From contig CP002278.1 in the NCBI GenBank assembly GCA_000166095.1, forward strand, positions 918,717-982,716: a stretch of 64,000 nt of DNA. Direction: 5' to 3'. The notes under the pieces were generated by a model. It had not been told where the DNA came from, did not search any database, and saw only the letters and a list, made by a program, of their open reading frames with translations. Both the position numbers and the translations under genes were made by a program. Within the stretch, counting starts at the first letter, position 1; each line of letters opens with the position of its first letter. Shown here in pieces: positions 2,778-38,195 of this stretch. The DNA comes from Methanothermus fervidus DSM 2088 (lineage in GTDB: Archaea; Methanobacteriota; Methanobacteria; DSM-2088; Methanothermaceae).

Positions 2778-4976
2778 CTATCTATATTGTATTTGTTCTT
2801 CCCTAGCTTTTTTCTGGGGCTTTATTTTTTCAATTGCCTTCTTAAAGTTTTTCATTGGCACTTCTTCTGCATCAAGATTTTCTCTTAAAGTCATTAATGC
2901 GGCTTCTCTACATACAGCTTCTATGTCAGCCCCAACAAATCCTTCGGTCATTTCTGCTAATTTTTCTAAATCAACATCATCTGCTAATGGCATATTACGT
3001 GTGTGTACTTTAAATATTTTAAGTCTTGTTTCTTTATCAGGTTTGCCAATTTTTATTTGTCTATCAAATCTACCAGGTCTTAATAATGCTGGATCAATTA
3101 TGTCAGGCCTATTTGTAGCTGCTAATACTACTACATCTTCTAGTTCTTCTAAACCATCAATTTCTGTTAACAATTGATTTACAACCCTTTGTGTAACACC
3201 AGAATCAGCAGAAATACCAGTTCTTGTAGATGCTATTGCGTCTATTTCATCAAAGAAAACTATTGTTGGTGCAGTTTGTCTAGCCTTTCTAAATACTTCT
3301 CTAACACCTTTCTCAGATTCTCCCACCCATTTTGATAACAATTCAGGACCCTTTATTGCAATGAAGTTTGCACCACTTTCATTTGCAACAGCCTTTGCTA
3401 GCAATGTCTTTCCAGTTCCAGGTGGTCCATATAGGAGTACACCTTTTGGAGGTTTAATTCCAAATTTTTTGAATTTTTCTGGATATTTAAGTGGCCATTC
3501 TACAGTTTCTCTTAACTCTTGTTTTACGTCTTCTAAACCTCCCACATCATCCCAGGTTACATTGGGCACTTGTACTGTCACTTCTCTTAATGCAGAAGGT
3601 TGGATTTCTTTTAGAGCGTTTTTGAAATCTTCCCTTGTAACCACCATTTCTTTAAGCACTTCTCTAGGTACCTTCTCCTTACCTTTTATTTTAGGTAATA
3701 TTCTTCTCAATACTCTCATTGCAGCTTCTTTACAAAGAGCTTCTAAATCTGCCCCAACAAATCCATGAGTTACATCTGCAAGTTCATCTAAATCAACATC
3801 ATCTGCTAATGGCATGCCTCGAGTATGTATTTCTAAAATTTCCTTTCTTTCATCTCTGTCAGGCACTCCAATTTCTATTTCTCTATCAAACCTTCCAGGT
3901 CTTCTTAATGCAGGATCCAATGCATCTGGCCTGTTTGTTGCACCGATGACTATTACTTGTCCTCTTGCTTTTAGACCATCCATAAGTGTGAGCAATTGTG
4001 CCACAATTCTTCTTTCAACTTCACCAGTTACTTCTTCTCTTTTAGGCGCTATTGCATCGATTTCATCTATGAATATAATTGATGGTGCATTTTCTTCTGC
4101 TTCTTTGAATATTTCTCTCAATCTTTCTTCAGATCCACCAACATATTTACTCATGATTTCAGGACCATTTATTGCGATGAAATGAGCATCACTTTCATTT
4201 GCAACAGCCTTTGCTAGCAATGTCTTTCCAGTTCCAGGTGGTCCATGCAAGAGAACTCCTTTTGGAGGTTCTATACCTAACCTTTCAAACAATTCAGGAT
4301 TTTTTAAAGGTATTTCTATCATTTCTCTTACTTTTTGTATAGCTTCCTTCATTCCACCAATATCTTCATAAGTTACGTCAGTAAGACTTTTAATACCTTC
4401 TATTTCACTTACATCTACAGGTTTTGACTGAATTTCTACATCTGTTGTATCTGTTACACGAACAATTCCTGGAGGTTTTGTTGATACCACTGCAAATCTT
4501 ATTTCACCTAAAGGAGATAAATCCATCATTTCTTTAAATATTTCTTCAAAGAACCCTCCACCAAGTCCGCTTATGCTAGGTCTTAAACTGGAGACTATTA
4601 TATCTCCCTTTGTTAAGATTCTATTAATAAATGCAGATCTCACATCTCCACGAACCATTACATGCTGATCTATTGGAGCTAAAACAACTTTTTCAGCTTC
4701 CTTTACTTCAGCTTTTCTTATTTTTACTTCATCGCCTATTGAGGCTCCTGCATTTTTCCTAATATATCCATCCATTCTTATTACATTTAATCCTACATCA
4801 GTTTCTGATGGACGTACTATAGCTCCAGTAACTTTTTTACCTTCTATTTCTATTACATCGCCCTCTCGTACGCCCAATTTTTCCATAAGTTTTGGATCAA
4901 GCCTAACTATTGATTTTCCAACATCTGATTGTGATAATGCTTCCGCAACTTTAGCTTTAACTTCATTCTTCTCCAT
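2778..4976 (-). CDS. cdc48: CDC48/VCP-like AAA+ ATPase (two AAA domains)
   Basis: Two Walker A GPPGTGKT motifs and two second-region-of-homology motifs; N-terminal double-psi-barrel region; start refined to ATG 4976 preceded by GGTGAT (track start 4988 is GTG). Confidence 0.85.
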
Positions 4977-5274
4977 GCCTATCACCACTTTATTTTGTTA
5001 TGTGAGTTCTTATTGATAATTTTTAGTAAAATTTTGTAACTATAATATACTTTAACATATTAATTATATATATTTTTAATTTTTTGTAAAAAATTGCATA
5101 ACACTTCTAAAATTTTTCATAATTTTAGTATTTCGAATTATTTGAAGAAAAATAAAAGAAATTTGTCATCGTTTTATACTTTTTTCTTAAATGTTTTTAC
5201 ATATTTATAAGTCGAAAATTATATTATGTACATATCGTTTATATAAAAATGAAAATCAAGAAGGAGGTGAAAAA

Positions 5275-7647
5275 TTGTCAAGAAAAATTTTGGCAATAGC
5301 TTTACTAGTGACATTCATAAGTTTGACTTTAGGAACAGCTACAGCATCAGAAGTATATGACATTTCCAAACAAATAGTGATGGATGCAAAAAACAAACTG
5401 AACATTGATAACAACAGCCAATGTTTGGTAATAACCACAGCAGGAAGTGCCAGATACAAAAATGAAAATACTGTAGATGGAATACAAGCTGTAGTTGATC
5501 ATATGCCATCTGCAAGATTAGGTAAAGGAAACATTCTAACATTGTATAAATATGGAAACTTAGAGTTTACATTTGTAAAAAAAGAAGACAAAGAATTGTA
5601 TGCAATAAAATATTATGTTGATGATTCTGGAATCAAAAGTACTCCAAAGTTAAATATTGGATTCAACATTGACGAAAATCAGTTCAATGTAGCTAAAAAT
5701 TATTTAGGATACGACACTATAACAATAGCGTGGGCATGGGCATCAGGTGCACCTCCAGATCTTTTAGAGATAGCAACTACCACATGGAGTATAAGACCTC
5801 AAACAATAGCCGATTATGCCATCACAAAACATTATATAGCTAACTTTAACCCCAGTGAAACAATACTTATAAGTAAATCTGGAAATTATGATGATGATGC
5901 AGCATTGCACTTAGTTGGCAATAGATTGCATGCTGTATATAAATATGAAGGTCCAGACGATGAAAAAGTGTTCATTGCATATGATTACCCATCTTGTGTA
6001 GTAGTTCATTACAAAGAAAAAATAAGCAAAACAAGGCCAGAGAGCCTTGAAGAACTTAAAGAAATGATAGCATGCATTGAAAAATTAAAAACAAATCCAT
6101 CATCATTATTCTCAATTAAATATCTTAAGACTGGAAATTCAAATGATGCAGCTTATTTAGCTAAAAATGGAATAGACGAGAATTATATATCCAAACTTAA
6201 TAATGCCAACATAGAATTACATGAACCAAAAATAGCAGAGGTAAATTATGATAAATATTACAATCTTGGTAAAGAAATTTTCAACAAAGTTTATAAGGTA
6301 GGATTATTTACAACTGAAGACATTAACGCTGGCAAAGTCACTGTAGTTTTACCTCCTTACTACAGTGTTTACAGTGGAACAAATGAATATATTGCTGGAT
6401 TAATAGACGGAATCATTGATGCTGCAAAAGAATTTGGTGCTGTATTCCCAATTAGAAATATTTTCCAAATAGATAACAAATGGTATGATTGGATTGGCAG
6501 TCAAATATCTATAATATTTGCAAAATCTGAAAATGAGAGATTTTTAACCACTAATAAGCTAGAAGACCTTAAAATACAAGGCGTGTTTGTAACGATTAAA
6601 CCTCCAAAGATTGAAGTTAGTGAAATTCGTGACATAAGTCCTGCTAACGATCCTTCTCCAGTAGCTAAATATGGTTTTGAAGATCCATTAAAGATGATTT
6701 TTGCTTGGAGCATGGGCTCACCATATGAGTATCTATGGATATATCAACGTTCAGGACGTTCATATACATGGGAAGATTATGATATTGTATTAGCATTAGA
6801 ACCATGGAAAATCAATGATGGAAATCTTATTTTAATAGCACCTATAGGGGAATGGGAATGGAGCAGCGATGCTTTACTCAGGGTAATAGGATACGGTGTA
6901 TCACCTTCCAGAGGTACCTACTTCTCATATACCATAACACAGCCAGTTGAAAGTCTTACAAATATCTATAGAATAATAGGTATTCCCAATACAATAAAAT
7001 TAATTACTTATGATAAAAGTAAAATTGCCAAACTTGTTTCTGCACGAGGATTCACGTGTTCTATAGGAAATCAACTGTATCGTTCACTTTATCTTTGGAA
7101 CAACAAAGAAGATTCTAAAGATTTCAAAGATGCCATATTTACTACTGAAATTAAACAAATATCTATTGAAGAGATATTGAAGTCACAAGATCCTGTAGCT
7201 TTATTATTAGCTCCACCTACTCTAACTCCTACACCCACTCTATCTCCAATTCCAACACCTACACCAACAGTACCGCCAACTCCATCTCCAATTTCCACAC
7301 TTACTCCAACTTCAACCTTTATATCTACGCCAACCCCCATATCAATAGTGTTACCAACCCCAATTCCTACGCCAATGCTTATACCAGCAGCCATGCCAAC
7401 AACGGTGTCAAACCTGGCTTTATCAGCGTCTTTACCTACATTACCAACTTCTACACCAACAAAAACTGTTAAAAAAATAATTAAACCAACGACAATGACA
7501 AAAATTGCTCCAAAAACTAGTAAAAACTTGAATACAGTGATATTGTATGTTGCCACATTAACAGCAATACTGGCAGTTGTCTATGGCATAACCTACCTTA
7601 TAAAACGTAGAAAGGAATTAATATTGCGTACAGAACCTGGAAAATAA
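5275..7647 (+). CDS. large secreted/surface protein with signal peptide, Pro/Thr-rich linker and C-terminal TM anchor plus basic tail
   Basis: TTG 5275 follows GGAGGTGA RBS (track ATG 5191 lies in the AT-rich promoter and is less likely); hydrophobic N-terminus ILAIALLVTFISLTLGTATA; TPTPTLSPIPTPTPTVPPTPSP linker; C-terminal helix VILYVATLTAILAVVYGITYLI followed by KRRK. Confidence 0.6.
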   Translation: MSRKILAIALLVTFISLTLGTATASEVYDISKQIVMDAKNKLNIDNNSQCLVITTAGSARYKNENTVDGIQAVVDHMPSARLGKGNILTLYKYGNLEFTFVKKEDKELYAIKYYVDDSGIKSTPKLNIGFNIDENQFNVAKNYLGYDTITIAWAWASGAPPDLLEIATTTWSIRPQTIADYAITKHYIANFNPSETILISKSGNYDDDAALHLVGNRLHAVYKYEGPDDEKVFIAYDYPSCVVVHYKEKISKTRPESLEELKEMIACIEKLKTNPSSLFSIKYLKTGNSNDAAYLAKNGIDENYISKLNNANIELHEPKIAEVNYDKYYNLGKEIFNKVYKVGLFTTEDINAGKVTVVLPPYYSVYSGTNEYIAGLIDGIIDAAKEFGAVFPIRNIFQIDNKWYDWIGSQISIIFAKSENERFLTTNKLEDLKIQGVFVTIKPPKIEVSEIRDISPANDPSPVAKYGFEDPLKMIFAWSMGSPYEYLWIYQRSGRSYTWEDYDIVLALEPWKINDGNLILIAPIGEWEWSSDALLRVIGYGVSPSRGTYFSYTITQPVESLTNIYRIIGIPNTIKLITYDKSKIAKLVSARGFTCSIGNQLYRSLYLWNNKEDSKDFKDAIFTTEIKQISIEEILKSQDPVALLLAPPTLTPTPTLSPIPTPTPTVPPTPSPISTLTPTSTFISTPTPISIVLPTPIPTPMLIPAAMPTTVSNLALSASLPTLPTSTPTKTVKKIIKPTTMTKIAPKTSKNLNTVILYVATLTAILAVVYGITYLIKRRKELILRTEPGK

Positions 7648-7686
7648 ATTTTTTCTTCTTCTTTTAAATTTTTAGGAGGTGAAATA

Positions 7687-9525
7687 ATGAGAAAAATGTT
7701 TATTCCGACACTGTTCTTCTTAAGTCTCTTGCTTGTGAATACAGCTCATGCCGCCAAAGTTGTATATGTCCATGAAAATGGTAGTGACATATATGATGGT
7801 AGTTCTTGGACTCATGCCTTGAAAACATTGAATAAAAGTATTGATATTGTGGAAAATGGTGGGATTATATATGCCTGTGGAAAATTTCAGGCGAGCAATA
7901 TAACAATAAATAAAAATTTAAGTATTGTTGGTAAAAACACGACAATATTTGATGGAAGTGGGAGTGGAATTTTGGAAATAACTCCAGGAAACACTGTTAA
8001 ACTGGTTAATTTAATATTTGTAAATGGTAATAGGACAGAAGGCGGAGCAATAATTAATAAAGGATGTTTAATAATTGAAAATTGTACTTTTATAAATAAC
8101 ACGGCAATATATGGAGGGGCTATTAGAAGTTATGGCAACTTAACAATTAAAAATTCATTGTTTAAAAGTAATGTGGCATTTACAGATGAAGGTCGTGGGG
8201 GAGCAATTAACTGTGATGGAGCCCAAGAAACTAAAATAGAAAATTGTGAATTTTGGGATGGCATTGCTCCTCATAACGGCGGTGCTATATATGGTTGGCA
8301 ATCAGGATATATTTATATAAAAAATTGTAAATTTGTTCGAAATAAGGCTCCAAATCCTGCTCATGGCGGTGCAATTTACGTTAGATGGACAAATGTTGTG
8401 ATAGAAAATTCTGAATTTATAAACAATACAGCAGAAGTTGGAGGAGCATTAAGAAATCATGATGGAGTAATGAAAATAGTAAATTGTACATTTATAGGCA
8501 ATATTGCAAGTGGTTGGAAAAAAAGAGGTCCAATAGGCGGTGCATTAGAAAATGGTCTTAATATGACAATAGAGAATTCTACATTCATAAATAATTTTGC
8601 AGAAAAACAAGGGGGAGCGATTAATAATTATGGTACACTAATAATTAAAGGCTGCAGTTTTCTTAATAATAAATCTCCTAGAGGATCAGCGATTTATAAT
8701 AGCAATGGAACTTTAACAGTTTCATTTTCAAGATTCGTTGACAATGAAGGAGACGTTGATATAAATTCTACAAATCAAAATGTAACCGCTGAATTAAATT
8801 GGTGGGGTCAAAATAATCCTGACTTTAGTAAAAGAGTGGCAGGGTTTAATGTTACAAAATGGTTAGTACTTAAAGTAATTCCAATACCTGAAAGATCTGA
8901 AATTAAAGTGTCAATCACAAGTGATAATTATGGAAACCAATATGACCCCAAAGATGGCTGTATTCCACCAACACCAGTGTTGTTTAAATTAGATCCATCT
9001 TCAAATGCTAGTGGAATTTTAAAACCAGAATACTGTCTTACAGACAATGGAGAATGCATAAGTAAATTTATAACAATAAAGCCAGGAACTGCTATCATAA
9101 CAACTACAGTAGACCATGAAACTATTAGTACAAGGATGGAAGCATCAATCCAAAACAAAACCTTCACAATAACCCTAACAAACTTAGGAAAATCAACAAT
9201 AACCATAAAATATTACATCTCAATCTACACAAATCCAGTTAATGGAACTAAAGTCAGCTATAGAGAATTAACAATAACTCTAAAGCCAAATGAAACAAAA
9301 ACAATAGAGTTAGGTAAATATCCATTTAAATATGCAGTATCTGGAACAATGATTGTCAAAAATCCATCAAGATATAGAATTCCATTAAATCTAAGAATAA
9401 AATATGAAATTGAGGGATTGAATCCACAGATGAGGGAGATAAGTAAATACATAGCTCCAAGGGGAGAATTTAGGTATATAGCTAGATATACAGGGAAAGA
9501 AGAAGGATATGCTGATGTTTGGTGA
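7687..9525 (+). CDS. secreted right-handed beta-helix repeat protein (GGAI-type repeats) with conserved C-terminal domain ending DVW
   Basis: Signal peptide [22 protein letters not shown]; >10 repeats of N-x-A-x-x-GGAI(Y/N) typical of parallel beta-helix (pectate lyase/Pmp-like) proteins; many N-x-S/T sequons; AGGAGGTGA RBS; C-terminal ~125 aa homologous to C-terminus of the 35321..36877 protein. Confidence 0.7.
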
Positions 9526-9562
9526 TTCTTTTTTTATTTTTTTAAATTTTGTGGTGATAAAA

Positions 9563-10339
9563 TTGGAAATTGATTGGAATGAATTGTGGAAAGAAAAAAT
9601 AAAAATTTATTCTAAAAATATTGATTGGGATTCACGAGCTAAAAAATTTAATAAAGCTATAAAATGCAATAATGATTATTCAATCAATGTGTTAAAAAGA
9701 ATTAAATTAGATCCAGAATGGAGTGTTCTTGATGTTGGATGTGGTCCTGGAACTCTTGCAATACCAATAGCAAAAGAAGTTAAGCATGTCACAGCAGTTG
9801 ATATCTCTAAAGAAATGTTAAAGCTACTAAAAAAGAATGCTGAAAAAGAAGGTATATCAAACATAAATATTGTAAATGCTGATTTTAAAGACATTGACAT
9901 TGAAAAAATAAAACCTCATGACGTTGTAATTGCCTCAAGGTTTTGTGGATTAACCGGTGACTTAAAATACGAATTAAAAAAGTTGGATTCATTAGCAAAA
10001 AAATATGTTTATATAACTTCATTAGCACAAGACAGAAAATTAAATCTTAAAATTTATAAAGCATTAGGCAAGCCTATTTTTCCAACTTATATATTTATCT
10101 ACAATGTCCTGTATCAACTAGGAATTTTTGCAAATGTTGAAATATTTGATTCTAAAATCTACCAGGTTTTTAAAAATATAGATGAGGCTGTGAATGATTG
10201 GAAATGGTTTATGAAACTAAATAAAAAAGAAGAAAAAATTTTAAGGAATATAATATCTTCAAATCTTAAAAAAACTCAAAATGGTTTTATTTATCAAGAC
10301 AAAGTTAAGTGGGCATTAATTTGGTGGAGAAAGTTGTAG
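9563..10339 (+). CDS. class I SAM-dependent methyltransferase
   Basis: Motif I VLDVGCGPGTLAIPIA and acidic motif II; start placed at TTG 9563 after GGTGAT (track start 9509 overlaps upstream gene and an oligo-T tract); start uncertain. Confidence 0.6.
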   Translation: MEIDWNELWKEKIKIYSKNIDWDSRAKKFNKAIKCNNDYSINVLKRIKLDPEWSVLDVGCGPGTLAIPIAKEVKHVTAVDISKEMLKLLKKNAEKEGISNINIVNADFKDIDIEKIKPHDVVIASRFCGLTGDLKYELKKLDSLAKKYVYITSLAQDRKLNLKIYKALGKPIFPTYIFIYNVLYQLGIFANVEIFDSKIYQVFKNIDEAVNDWKWFMKLNKKEEKILRNIISSNLKKTQNGFIYQDKVKWALIWWRKL

Positions 10340-35311: not shown

Positions 35312-35320
35312 GTGGAAAAA

Positions 35321-36877
35321 ATGAAAAATAAATTACCTCTAATTTTACTCGCATTGTCATTTTTAATGTTTTTTATGAGCCTCACATATGCTTATGGTGC
35401 AGATTCAGAAAAATATGCAATTTTAGTGGGTGTAGCAAACTACCAAAACATAAGACCTTTAAAATACACAATTAATGATGTATATTCAATGAAAAATCTT
35501 TTAACAGAACAAAATTTCACAACTTATACATTGATAGATTCTAATGCAACAAAAGAAAATATCAAATCCACAATTTACAATGTTTCAAGCATGGTGAAAG
35601 AAAATGACACCTTTATTTTTTATTTCAGTGGACATGGGACAAATGGTCCAGATCTTCCTTACTATATATGTCCATATGATGCAAAAAATCTTTTAACCTG
35701 TATAAGAGCAGATGAACTCGCTACTTGGATTAAAACAATTAATTGTAAGAATAAAATACTTATATTTGACACTTGTTTTAGTGGTGGATTAGCAATTGAA
35801 AAAGAAAATGTTAAGACAACAGTATTATCTTATGTAACAAGTAATACAACAGAAAATGTTACAATTGGATATGTTTTTGGAAACGAAACAACCGTAATTA
35901 CTTCTTGCTCTGAAGATGAATTCTCTTATGAAGATTATGTATTAAACCATGGTGTTTTCACTTATTATTTCTTAAAAGCATTTAAAGATCCTAGAGCAGA
36001 CATAGATAAAGATGGATTTATAAGTTTACTTGAAGCATTTAATTATACTTTATCAAGAGTTAGAAAATATGTTGAAAATCGGTTTTGGGATGAACAAACG
36101 CCAAAGGTTTATGGTATCGTTGCGAACATTAAATTTAGGCTTTTACTTCCTGATCTAACAGTGGTATCAGCTGCATGTGAGGTTTTATCTCCTTCAGTTT
36201 TGCGTGTCTCTTATATAGTTAAGAACATAGGATATGGTTTTGCATTAGCTCCTTGGCAAGATGTCATATATCTCTCTGCAACTAAAGTTTTGGAAGAATT
36301 TTATACAATAGCCGCAAGAAATAATATACAAAAGGATCTTTTAGCTAATGCGACTTACAATATTACAACATATATTTATTTCTCCTCGCAGAATCTTTAC
36401 CTTATTATCCACTGTGATGAGTTAAATTATGTCCCTGAATTAAATAAAACAAATAATTATTTTGTAGCTCCTATATCTACCCTAATTCCGTCTTCATCTA
36501 AATTAAATGAGAAAAATTTCTCAATAACAATTAAGAACGTTGGTTCAGAACCAATTCTATTTAAATATTATGTTAGCGTATATACATCTCCAGTAAAAGG
36601 AAGTAGAATTCTTTATGATGAATATTTCTATTTCTTAACTCCTGGAGAAAAAATAATTATAGATCTAGGTAGTTTTCCAGCCAATTACGCAGTGAGTACA
36701 ACTTTTGAGATTATTAATCCCAGTAGTTCACCACTACATGCCAACATGCAAGCAGTTTTCAATGTTGAAGGATATGTGCCACAAATATTGGTACTCTCCA
36801 AGTATATTCCAGCAAGAAGCAAGAAATATTATACAATAAGATTTACAACAAACAACAATTTTGTGGATATATGGTGA
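35321..36877 (+). CDS. secreted caspase-like cysteine peptidase (C14/orthocaspase family) with CARDB-like domain and conserved C-terminal domain ending DIW
   Basis: signal peptide; catalytic His-Gly (FYFSGHGT) and Cys (IFDTCFSGG) in caspase spacing; CARDB-like PDLTVV...ELNKTNN; C-terminal ~125 aa shared with 7687..9525 protein; ATG 35321 after AGGTGGA. Confidence 0.65.
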
Positions 36878-36908
36878 CACTGTTTTTACAGAGAAGAGGA
36901 GGCATTAT

Positions 36909-38195
36909 ATGAAAATAAATGAAAAAGGACATTTAGTTATAGGAGAAGTCGATGCTGTAGAGCTTGCTGAAAAATATGATACTCCTCTTTATGTAATAGA
37001 TGAAAATAAAATTAGAGAAAATTATAGGCGAATTTATAATGCATTTAAAAAAAGATATGACAAATTTAAGATCCTTTATGCATGTAAAGCAAATACTAAT
37101 ATTGCAATAATGAAAATTTTGAATGATGAGGGTAGTGGAATTGATGCTGTATCTCCTGGAGAGATATATATAGCATTAGTGGCAGGGTTTAAACCTGAAG
37201 AAATATTATTTACAGGTAACAATGTTAGAAATGATGAATTAGAGTTTGCTGTAGAATCTGGAGTGATGATAAATATTGATTCTATATCTCAACTTAAGAG
37301 ACTTTCAAAATTATGTAATCCTGAGGAAGTAGAAATATCTTTTAGGATAAACCCTCTCGTTGGTGCAGGACATCATGAACATTGTATAACTGGAGGAGAA
37401 ATGAGTAAATTTGGTATAGCGGAAAAAGACGCTGTTAAAGCTTATTCTATGGCAAAGAATTTAGGATTTAAAATAAAAGGTATTCATTGTCATATAGGTT
37501 CTGGGATATTAGATCCAAGTCCATTTTTAATGGCTGTGGATGCTCTTACTAAAATTGCTGAAAGAGTTTCTAAAGAAGTTGGAATAGAATTTGAATTTAT
37601 AGACATCGGTGGAGGATTTGGAATCCCATATAAGCCTGAAGAACCTGAGTTAAATATTGAAAATCTTGCAAAAAAAATCATTGAGGTATTTAAAGAAAGG
37701 TGTGATGAATATAATCTTGGAAATCCATGGTTATATATAGAACCTGGAAGATACATTGTTGGAAATGCAGCATGCCTGTTAACTAGGGTTAACACAATAA
37801 AGAAGAGTTATAGAAAGTTTGCAGGCGTTGATGCAGGGTTTAATACTTTGATTAGACCAGCCATGTATGGTTCATATCATCATATCATAGTAGCAAATAA
37901 AGCCAATGAAGAACCTTGTGAAAAAATAGACATTGCTGGAAACTTATGTGAATCTGGTGACATTTTTGCAAGAGATAGAGAACTTCCAAAACTAGAAGAG
38001 GGAGACATTCTTGCAATTATGGATGCTGGGGCATATTGTTTTTCAATGTCATCACAATATAATTCCAGACCAAGACCCGCTGAAGTACTTGTAAAAGATG
38101 ACAAAGTGTCAATAATCAGGGAAAGAGAAAGCATCATAGACTTGTTAGATAAGCAAGTTATACCGGCAAGATTACTAAAAGGTGGTAAAAAATGA
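36909..38195 (+). CDS. lysA: diaminopimelate decarboxylase
   Basis: PLP fold-III decarboxylase motifs ([19 protein letters not shown]); ATG 36909 after AGAGGAGG. Confidence 0.85.

Follow-up and report, generated by a model that had tools for sequence, protein, structure and literature searches.

The DNA stretch under study (termed the window) comprises 64,000 nucleotides from the genome of the hot-spring methanogen Methanothermus fervidus DSM 2088 (contig CP002278.1, positions 918,717 to 982,716 of the forward strand; G+C content 31.6%) and encodes two predicted secreted proteins, a caspase-like (C14) peptidase and a right-handed beta-helix protein with PMP repeats, that end in a common C-terminal domain (CTD). 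By exact-sequence match, these proteins are named in the databases as "peptidase C14 caspase catalytic subunit p20" (ADP77797.1) and "polymorphic outer membrane protein" (ADP77769.1). The features of both genes are listed in Table 1. In the beta-helix protein, Pfam and NCBIfam models place the PMP/POMP repeats between the signal peptide and the CTD, and precomputed Pfam data list C14 and CARDB for the caspase protein and nothing else. An alternative GTG start at 35312 would give the caspase protein 521 residues; the gene callers take the ATG at 35321, as did an earlier note on this DNA. That note had assigned the host to the Methanococcales, which is incorrect, as M. fervidus belongs to the Methanobacteriales.

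Table 1. Features of the two CTD-carrying genes in the window
Feature	Position	Strand	Details
Beta-helix/PMP-repeat protein gene	7687..9525	+	ADP77769.1 / WP_013414047.1; right-handed beta-helix; 612 aa
Predicted Sec signal peptide, beta-helix protein	7687..7752	+	Hydrophobic segment; ends NTAHA, followed by AK; A-H-A site read from sequence
CTD, copy 2 (beta-helix protein)	9157..9522	+	122 aa; ends YADVW; pI 9.8; net charge +10
Caspase-like (C14) peptidase gene	35321..36877	+	ADP77797.1 / WP_013414075.1; 518 aa from ATG
Predicted Sec signal peptide, caspase protein	35321..35398	+	Ends TYAYG, followed by AD; A-Y-G cleavage-type site read from sequence by eye
Peptidase C14 (caspase) catalytic domain	35411..36103	+	Pfam Peptidase_C14, E = 1.3e-26; residues 34-264 of GTG-start open reading frame (ORF)
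CARDB Ig-like domain	36149..36463	+	Pfam E = 6.5e-9, 36.4 bits (cutoff 22.7); residues 280-384 of GTG-start ORF
Ser-rich flexible linker	36464..36508	+	First 10 residues of the model with mean pLDDT 51; unalignable across the family
CTD, copy 1 (caspase protein)	36509..36874	+	122 aa; 9-strand beta-sandwich; ends FVDIW; pI 8.8; residues 400-521 of GTG-start ORF

Comparison of the two proteins by BLASTP returned a single significant segment, residues 388 to 521 of the caspase protein against residues 480 to 612 of the beta-helix protein, in which 52 of 135 positions were identical (39%, with 58% positives) at an E-value of 4e-25. All remaining segments had E-values above 1. Judged from these alignments, the similarity of the two CTDs is far beyond chance, since a profile built from the two sequences retrieves four more M. 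fervidus proteins with E-values of 3e-48 to 8e-35. The claim of the earlier note that two unrelated secreted proteins share a C-terminal domain was thus confirmed, and the similarity, which that note had considered might be lost under alignment statistics, stands. Of its outline of about 125 residues (36491-36877 and ~9139..9525), the C-terminal position was retained and the extent was not, as the folded domain covers about 122 residues and starts at 36509 and 9157. Its peptide assignments had also been swapped: YAVSGTM and YADVW belong to the beta-helix protein, and YAVSTTF and FVDIW to the caspase. No third copy of the CTD was detected in the window, as tblastn with either CTD against the six-frame translation returned these two alone.

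A set of 1.84 billion representative proteins was scanned exhaustively by HMMER with the two-sequence profile, and 14 hits were returned. The four strong hits all derive from M. fervidus and include (i) ADP77947.1, a PMP beta-helix protein; (ii) Mfer_1076, with CARDB-like repeats; (iii) Mfer_0615, with a BPL_N/GATase-like domain and one pseudomurein-binding (PMB) repeat; and (iv) WP_052293464.1. The M. fervidus genome (1,243,342 bp) was therefore found to encode at least six CTD carriers, and the CTD of the beta-helix protein in the window shares 64 to 76% identity with the CTDs of two further beta-helix proteins of this species. Six weaker hits were recovered at E-values of 1e-7 to 5e-4, two of them with a named source, Methanothermobacter and a Methanobacteriaceae metagenome-assembled genome (MAG). 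The hits P0005, P0006, P0007, and P0010 were treated as spurious, with matches made up of many short repeated stretches; by Pfam, P0005 and P0007 are LapA and Rib-repeat adhesins, and P0006 and P0010 had no informative match. Scans of genomes and metagenomes added 11 loci, with Methanobacteriaceae MAGs, Methanobacterium sp., and Methanothermobacter sp. as named sources. The first genome scan was empty and the other two provided all 11 loci, a low yield attributable to the narrow degenerate patterns used. A word-indexed protein search returned P0001 and P0025 alone and missed members present in the collection, such that its negatives are weak. All hits of known source belong to pseudomurein-walled Methanobacteriales, and as far as these searches reach, the CTD family appears restricted to Methanothermus, Methanothermobacter, and Methanobacterium-like Methanobacteriales.

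The cargo preceding the CTD is composed of unrelated domains, in line with the expectation of the earlier note that the N-terminal domains of the carriers would be diverse. Aside from C14 plus CARDB, this set includes PMP beta-helices, CARDB-like repeats, the BPL_N/GATase-like domain with one PMB repeat, DUF7948 with SBBP and DUF11, SBBP with CARDB, and CarboxypepD_reg with a beta-helix and Big_3_5; the weaker hits carry DUF7948+SBBP+DUF11, SBBP+CARDB, or beta-helix+Big_3_5. The Mfer_0615 homologue at locus L015 (6001..7512) is a predicted secreted BPL_N/class-I glutamine amidotransferase-like protein, with the single PMB repeat at residues 106 to 133 in addition to the CTD, and Mfer_0615 is the sole carrier with a second putative wall-binding element.

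The position of the domain was checked by local hmmsearch over all six-frame ORFs of the window and the fetched loci. Every full-length match (two window copies, 11 loci, and 10 library proteins) was single-copy and ended 0 to 9 residues before the stop, consistent with the earlier suggestion that the CTD is always C-terminal. Internal matches were limited to fragments of 10 to 40 residues that correspond to a first-strand motif in DUF11/CARDB repeats. A full-length internal or tandem CTD was never found among the carriers recovered, a pattern more in keeping with a domain for retention or anchoring than with a generic adhesion repeat.

Three subfamilies were distinguished that align end to end, with identities of 33 to 76% within the Methanothermus subfamily, 43 to 68% within the Methanobacterium-like subfamily, 80 to 91% within the Methanothermobacter subfamily, and 14 to 30% between subfamilies. 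Eight positions are invariant (N22, G24, Y32, Y33, Y37, L55, G66, and N82), and the alternation of residues along the strand suggests that Y33 and Y37 share an outward face with K31 and S35. The terminal D-[IV]-W, taken in the earlier note as a conserved tripeptide, was found in five of the six M. fervidus paralogues (P0001 ends in IEVS). It did not hold as a family-wide signal: the motif is absent from all relatives outside Methanothermus, where the other subfamilies end in ...RITVT or ...LNVLIVKKPRIK, and it forms part of the last beta-strand.

Structure prediction by AlphaFold2 (AF2) from a 12-sequence alignment yielded an all-beta domain of nine strands (mean pLDDT 92.5, pTM 0.82), in which the first ~10 linker residues were disordered and the terminal FVDI formed the last strand. 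A second AF2 model, based on the Methanobacteriaceae subfamily alone, gave the same sandwich (pLDDT 86.2), with a longer last strand that takes in the extra tail of this subfamily. As the terminal residues form the last strand in both models, the extreme C-terminus of the CTD is predicted to be structural, with no free peptide. Foldseek searches with the CTD model returned no match at E ≤ 1e-3 and only generic sandwiches as neighbors, and a sequence-profile search of the PDB with the CTD gave no match. The resemblance to PLAT/LH2 (PF01477), to transglutaminase C-terminal sandwiches, and to the uncharacterized Bacteroides structures 2LRG and 2LGE is of this generic kind, with identities of 5 to 16% and no HMM match.

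No Pfam or NCBIfam model covers the CTD in the window proteins or in the family members, a point that the earlier note had proposed to examine. Lax scans of 15 isolated CTDs revealed sub-threshold matches only: HYDIN_VesB_CFA65-like_Ig (PF22544) in 6 of the 15, with a best E-value of 4e-4, and DUF4232, Cep192_D4, Transglut_C, and choice-of-anchor D. For P0012, a whole-protein PF22544 hit of 32.4 bits was obtained with its best stretch on the first half of the CTD; no single stretch passes alone. A divergent CARDB domain (PF07705) was considered and rejected, as the CARDB match is confined to residues 280 to 384 and hhalign of the CTD against the caspase's own CARDB domain gave a probability of 0.07%. 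What the CTD has in common with DUF11 and CARDB repeats is limited to short partial matches of its first-strand motif, F-x-[IL]-T-[IV]-x-N-x-G. Overall, the CTD is best described as a new, hitherto unannotated family, an autonomous domain of about 120 residues that probably lies within the broad Ig-like sandwich superfamily.

The carriers were also examined for export signals and anchors. All of those with intact N-termini have exactly one hydrophobic segment, located at the N-terminus and followed by an A-x-A-type site, in support of the earlier proposal that all carriers have signal peptides; in the caspase protein, the N-terminal segment is likewise the sole hydrophobic segment. No C-terminal transmembrane (TM) helix was detected in any carrier by the hydrophobic-segment scan. 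The charge of the CTD is inverted relative to the cargo in 12 of 12 carriers, with cargo pI values of 4.0 to 7.1 compared with 8.8 to 10.6 for the CTD (net charge +2 to +26), and the CARDB domain of the caspase has a pI of 4.8. The Tyr content of the CTD is also higher than that of the cargo in all 12 (5 to 14% versus 1 to 8%). In the long carriers, a functional head is followed by Ig-like repeats and then by the CTD, an order as in C-terminally anchored adhesins.

The reading we favor, to which we would give an even chance, is that the CTD serves as a non-covalent envelope-retention module that probably binds pseudomurein or an associated anionic polymer, with both the binding and the ligand being what we infer from the homology, single-copy C-terminal position, diverse cargo, fold, charge asymmetry, lack of another anchor, and taxonomic restriction of the family. 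The carrier would be exported by means of its N-terminal Sec signal peptide, which would then be cleaved. Through non-covalent binding to an anionic component, for which the pseudomurein sacculus or an associated polymer is the likeliest candidate, the strongly basic, Tyr-rich CTD would keep the otherwise anchorless protein on the envelope. The acidic N-terminal enzyme or adhesin would thereby be displayed outward, raised in the long carriers on Ig-like repeats that would serve as a stalk. The cell wall in the Methanobacteriales is made of pseudomurein, in M. fervidus with an S-layer on top, and Methanothermobacter is generally described as lacking an S-layer of the M. fervidus type. Pseudomurein or an associated polymer may be the likeliest ligand because this envelope layer is common to the three genera, and for the same family-wide ligand the wall or membrane would be more likely than the S-layer because of the description of Methanothermobacter.

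The concept of a retention module has precedent in the Methanobacteriales in the form of PMB repeats and the M1-C domain (PMC2812497, PMC3210951). The PMB repeat (PF09373), as found in MTH719 and PeiW/PeiP, is similar to the CTD in being a modular, non-catalytic wall-retention module of secreted Methanobacteriales proteins that can be C-terminal; its binding was demonstrated with GFP fusions (PMC3124540, PMC3210951). It differs in size and arrangement, with ~30 residues in at least three tandem copies compared with one beta-sandwich of ~120 residues, and Pfam detected no PMB repeat in the CTDs of the family members, the only match being that of Mfer_0615, outside its CTD. On their own, single or paired PMB motifs do not bind pseudomurein (PMC3210951), and we count the combination of a single PMB repeat with a CTD in Mfer_0615 in favor of retention. 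The CTD could represent a second class of module that binds pseudomurein non-covalently and has no structural relation to the PMB repeat, a possibility that we consider somewhat doubtful although more probable than the sorting signal discussed below. The M1-C domain, of ~200 residues with a Big_1-like part, is found in 44 adhesin-like proteins (ALPs) of Methanobrevibacter ruminantium and has been proposed, not demonstrated, to attach proteins to pseudomurein or wall glycopolymers (PMC2812497). It resembles the CTD in its order, the Methanobacteriales, and in that it terminates secreted surface proteins of the beta-helix/Ig-repeat type, of which some include a peptidase; moreover, the Methanobacteriaceae CTD carriers have a Big_1/Big_3_5 domain directly before the CTD. 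The M. fervidus carriers, in contrast, have no Big_1 segment. No Methanobrevibacter protein was recovered by the CTD searches, a weak negative as the word-indexed part missed known members, and the comparison with M1-C is by description only. Recent surveys of ALP domains in the Methanobacteriales do not define the CTD.

Several observations weigh against envelope retention. The CTD of the caspase is only weakly basic (net charge +2), the location of the carriers on the envelope is deduced from sequence, and Mfer_0615 already has a PMB repeat, such that its CTD might do something else. The searches returned no carriers from Methanobrevibacter, Methanosphaera, or Methanopyrus, and the domain is thus not general to pseudomurein-walled archaea. 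Signal-peptide cleavage was predicted by eye; if the N-terminal segment were to remain as an uncleaved anchor, the CTD would form the distal tip of the protein and not its base. The invariant residues also look structural (turn Asn/Gly and core Tyr/Leu), with no obvious conserved polar ligand site seen. This last point is equally what would be expected if the CTD were an Ig-like end domain with a structural or protein-binding role, for example in capping, oligomerization, or adhesion at the tip, and with no part in anchoring; the carrier would then be released or would be tethered by an uncleaved N-terminal signal-anchor. We consider this explanation unlikely, if still a serious one. It is consistent with the sub-threshold matches to Ig-like/PapD-like families (HYDIN_VesB_CFA65-like_Ig in 6 of 15, Cep192_D4, Transglut_C, and choice-of-anchor D) and with the generic sandwiches found as structural neighbors, and a 2024 ALP study proposes N-terminal membrane anchors for many Methanobacteriales ALPs (PMC11532034). 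However, the CARDB, DUF11, and Big_3_5 domains of the same proteins occur internally and in tandem and the CTD never does, the consistent charge inversion between CTD and cargo is unexpected for a passive spacer, and the N-terminal segments precede canonical AXA sites.

The basic and Tyr-rich composition of the CTD could also be accommodated by a PLAT/LH2-like peripheral membrane module, whose basic and aromatic residues would tether the exported protein to the external surface of the cytoplasmic membrane and not to the wall. PLAT/LH2 domains are 8-strand sandwiches with Ca/lipid-binding loops, and a domain of the PLAT type forms the C-terminal part of pancreatic lipase, a protein present in the Foldseek list. 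The top structural match, 2LGE, is a putative Ca-binding protein (PMC3561183); yet the alignment showed no conserved acidic residues of the Ca-binding kind, and enzymes such as the caspase would lie under a thick pseudomurein layer. We consider this option rather improbable. We regard as highly improbable a folded sorting signal, for which an envelope enzyme would recognize the CTD, cleave at the Ser/Pro/Thr linker, and form a covalent bond between the cargo and either pseudomurein or the S-layer. A whole-domain beta-sandwich at the extreme C-terminus of varied signal-peptide cargo, a flexible Ser/Pro/Thr linker preceding it, and the D-[IV]-W ending conserved within M. fervidus are features that such a signal might have. 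Against it are the absence of matches to models of type IX secretion system (T9SS) or archaeosortase signals, of a TM helix, and of a terminal motif conserved across subfamilies. In addition, no conserved neighboring protease, glycosyltransferase, or sortase was found in the window or at the fetched carrier loci, where the flanks are housekeeping genes that differ among loci, and the membrane protease or glycosyltransferase that the earlier note had envisioned as co-occurring was therefore not evident. From what is established about its envelope, M. fervidus also has no outer membrane to cross.

The two systems to which the earlier note had likened the CTD fared accordingly. The T9SS CTD of Bacteroidota is similar in that a folded C-terminal beta-sandwich is found on varied Sec cargo, among which is a cysteine peptidase of clan CD that also has an Ig-like domain; it is smaller, with roughly 7 strands, compared with 9 strands and ~120 residues for the domain of the present family. 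In the T9SS, a sortase-like peptidase removes the CTD, and the cargo becomes linked to a surface glycolipid. No match to TIGR04183/PF18962 or TIGR04131 was obtained for 15 members even at E ≤ 10, and the T9SS CTD was not among the top 60 structural neighbors of either AF2 model. To our knowledge, neither an outer membrane nor the Bacteroidota-specific T9SS is expected in an archaeal host, and T9SS components were not searched for. The CTD was thus rejected as a T9SS sorting domain, and the gingipain parallel is reduced to a superficial resemblance, as sequence models, structural neighbors, and host biology all fail to support it. The archaeosortase signals (PGF-CTERM, PEF-CTERM, and VPXXXP-CTERM) are also C-terminal features of many secreted archaeal surface proteins. 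They consist, however, of a short tripartite motif, a TM helix, and a basic tail, whereas the CTD is globular and all-beta with no TM helix. With no NCBIfam match and a beta-strand at its C-terminus, the CTD was likewise rejected as an archaeosortase signal, and the proposed tripartite parallel was abandoned.

The CTD is therefore a small, lineage-restricted family of the C-terminal surface-retention or Ig-like sandwich kind and no new type of sorting system. For the retention of secreted enzymes and ALPs on the pseudomurein wall of Methanobacteriales, we know of no experimentally supported wall-binding module other than the PMB repeat, with M1-C still a proposal. If the CTD binds the envelope, its recognition would improve the annotation of surface proteomes in thermophilic Methanobacteriales and the compact, thermostable, single-copy CTD could be employed as a tag to display proteins on methanogens with a pseudomurein wall, an application for which LysM and PMB have served before. 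It would also place a secreted caspase-family peptidase at the surface of a hyperthermophile cell. The importance of the domain is local more than general, as the family is small and lineage-restricted; the sorting-signal explanation, if true, would provide archaea with a functional counterpart to T9SS-CTD or sortase processing.

With regard to the caspase protein itself, the His/Cys dyad is intact and comprises the His of SGHG and the Cys of DTCFSGG. Based on this dyad and the signal peptide, the C14 protein is predicted to be an extracellular caspase-like protease of a hyperthermophilic methanogen. Its score to the NCBIfam model 'caspase, EACC1-associated type' was 79 bits, which is below the threshold (cutoff 140). 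Logan variants of the caspase are 99 to 100% identical and as such are uninformative on constraint.

The genes that flank the two carriers in the window encode CDC48, AdoHcy hydrolase, a methyltransferase, ADP-forming acetyl-CoA synthetase, and the products of lysA and dapF. On its own strand, the caspase gene is followed directly by lysA-dapF, which are genes of lysine biosynthesis. In the longest-ORF listing, the ORFs 3′ of the carriers (36861..38195 and 9509..10339, both on the plus strand) overlap the final CTD codons; these overlaps are longest-ORF artifacts, since the gene callers place the lysA start 32 nt past the caspase stop (3589 versus 3557 at locus L016). At the Methanobacteriaceae UBA587 locus (L001), a CTD carrier is followed by two signal-peptide beta-helix-like ORFs (4764..6419 and 6768..8387) with no CTD match, and the domain is present in only some of the ALPs that a genome encodes. 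In the window, the beta-helix CTD carrier is immediately preceded by Mfer_0972 (5191..7647, plus strand), a hypothetical surface protein of 818 residues that matches no Pfam model. Mfer_0972 has a hydrophobic segment at its N-terminus, and a long linker rich in Pro and Thr leads to a TM helix (residues 779 to 805) and a basic tail at its C-terminus. As the CTD carriers have no C-terminal TM helix and this neighbor does, the CTD and the TM tail look like alternative C-terminal endings. A minus-strand ORF of 155 aa (7089..7556), rich in GVGVG, is a reverse-frame shadow of the Mfer_0972 Pro/Thr linker.

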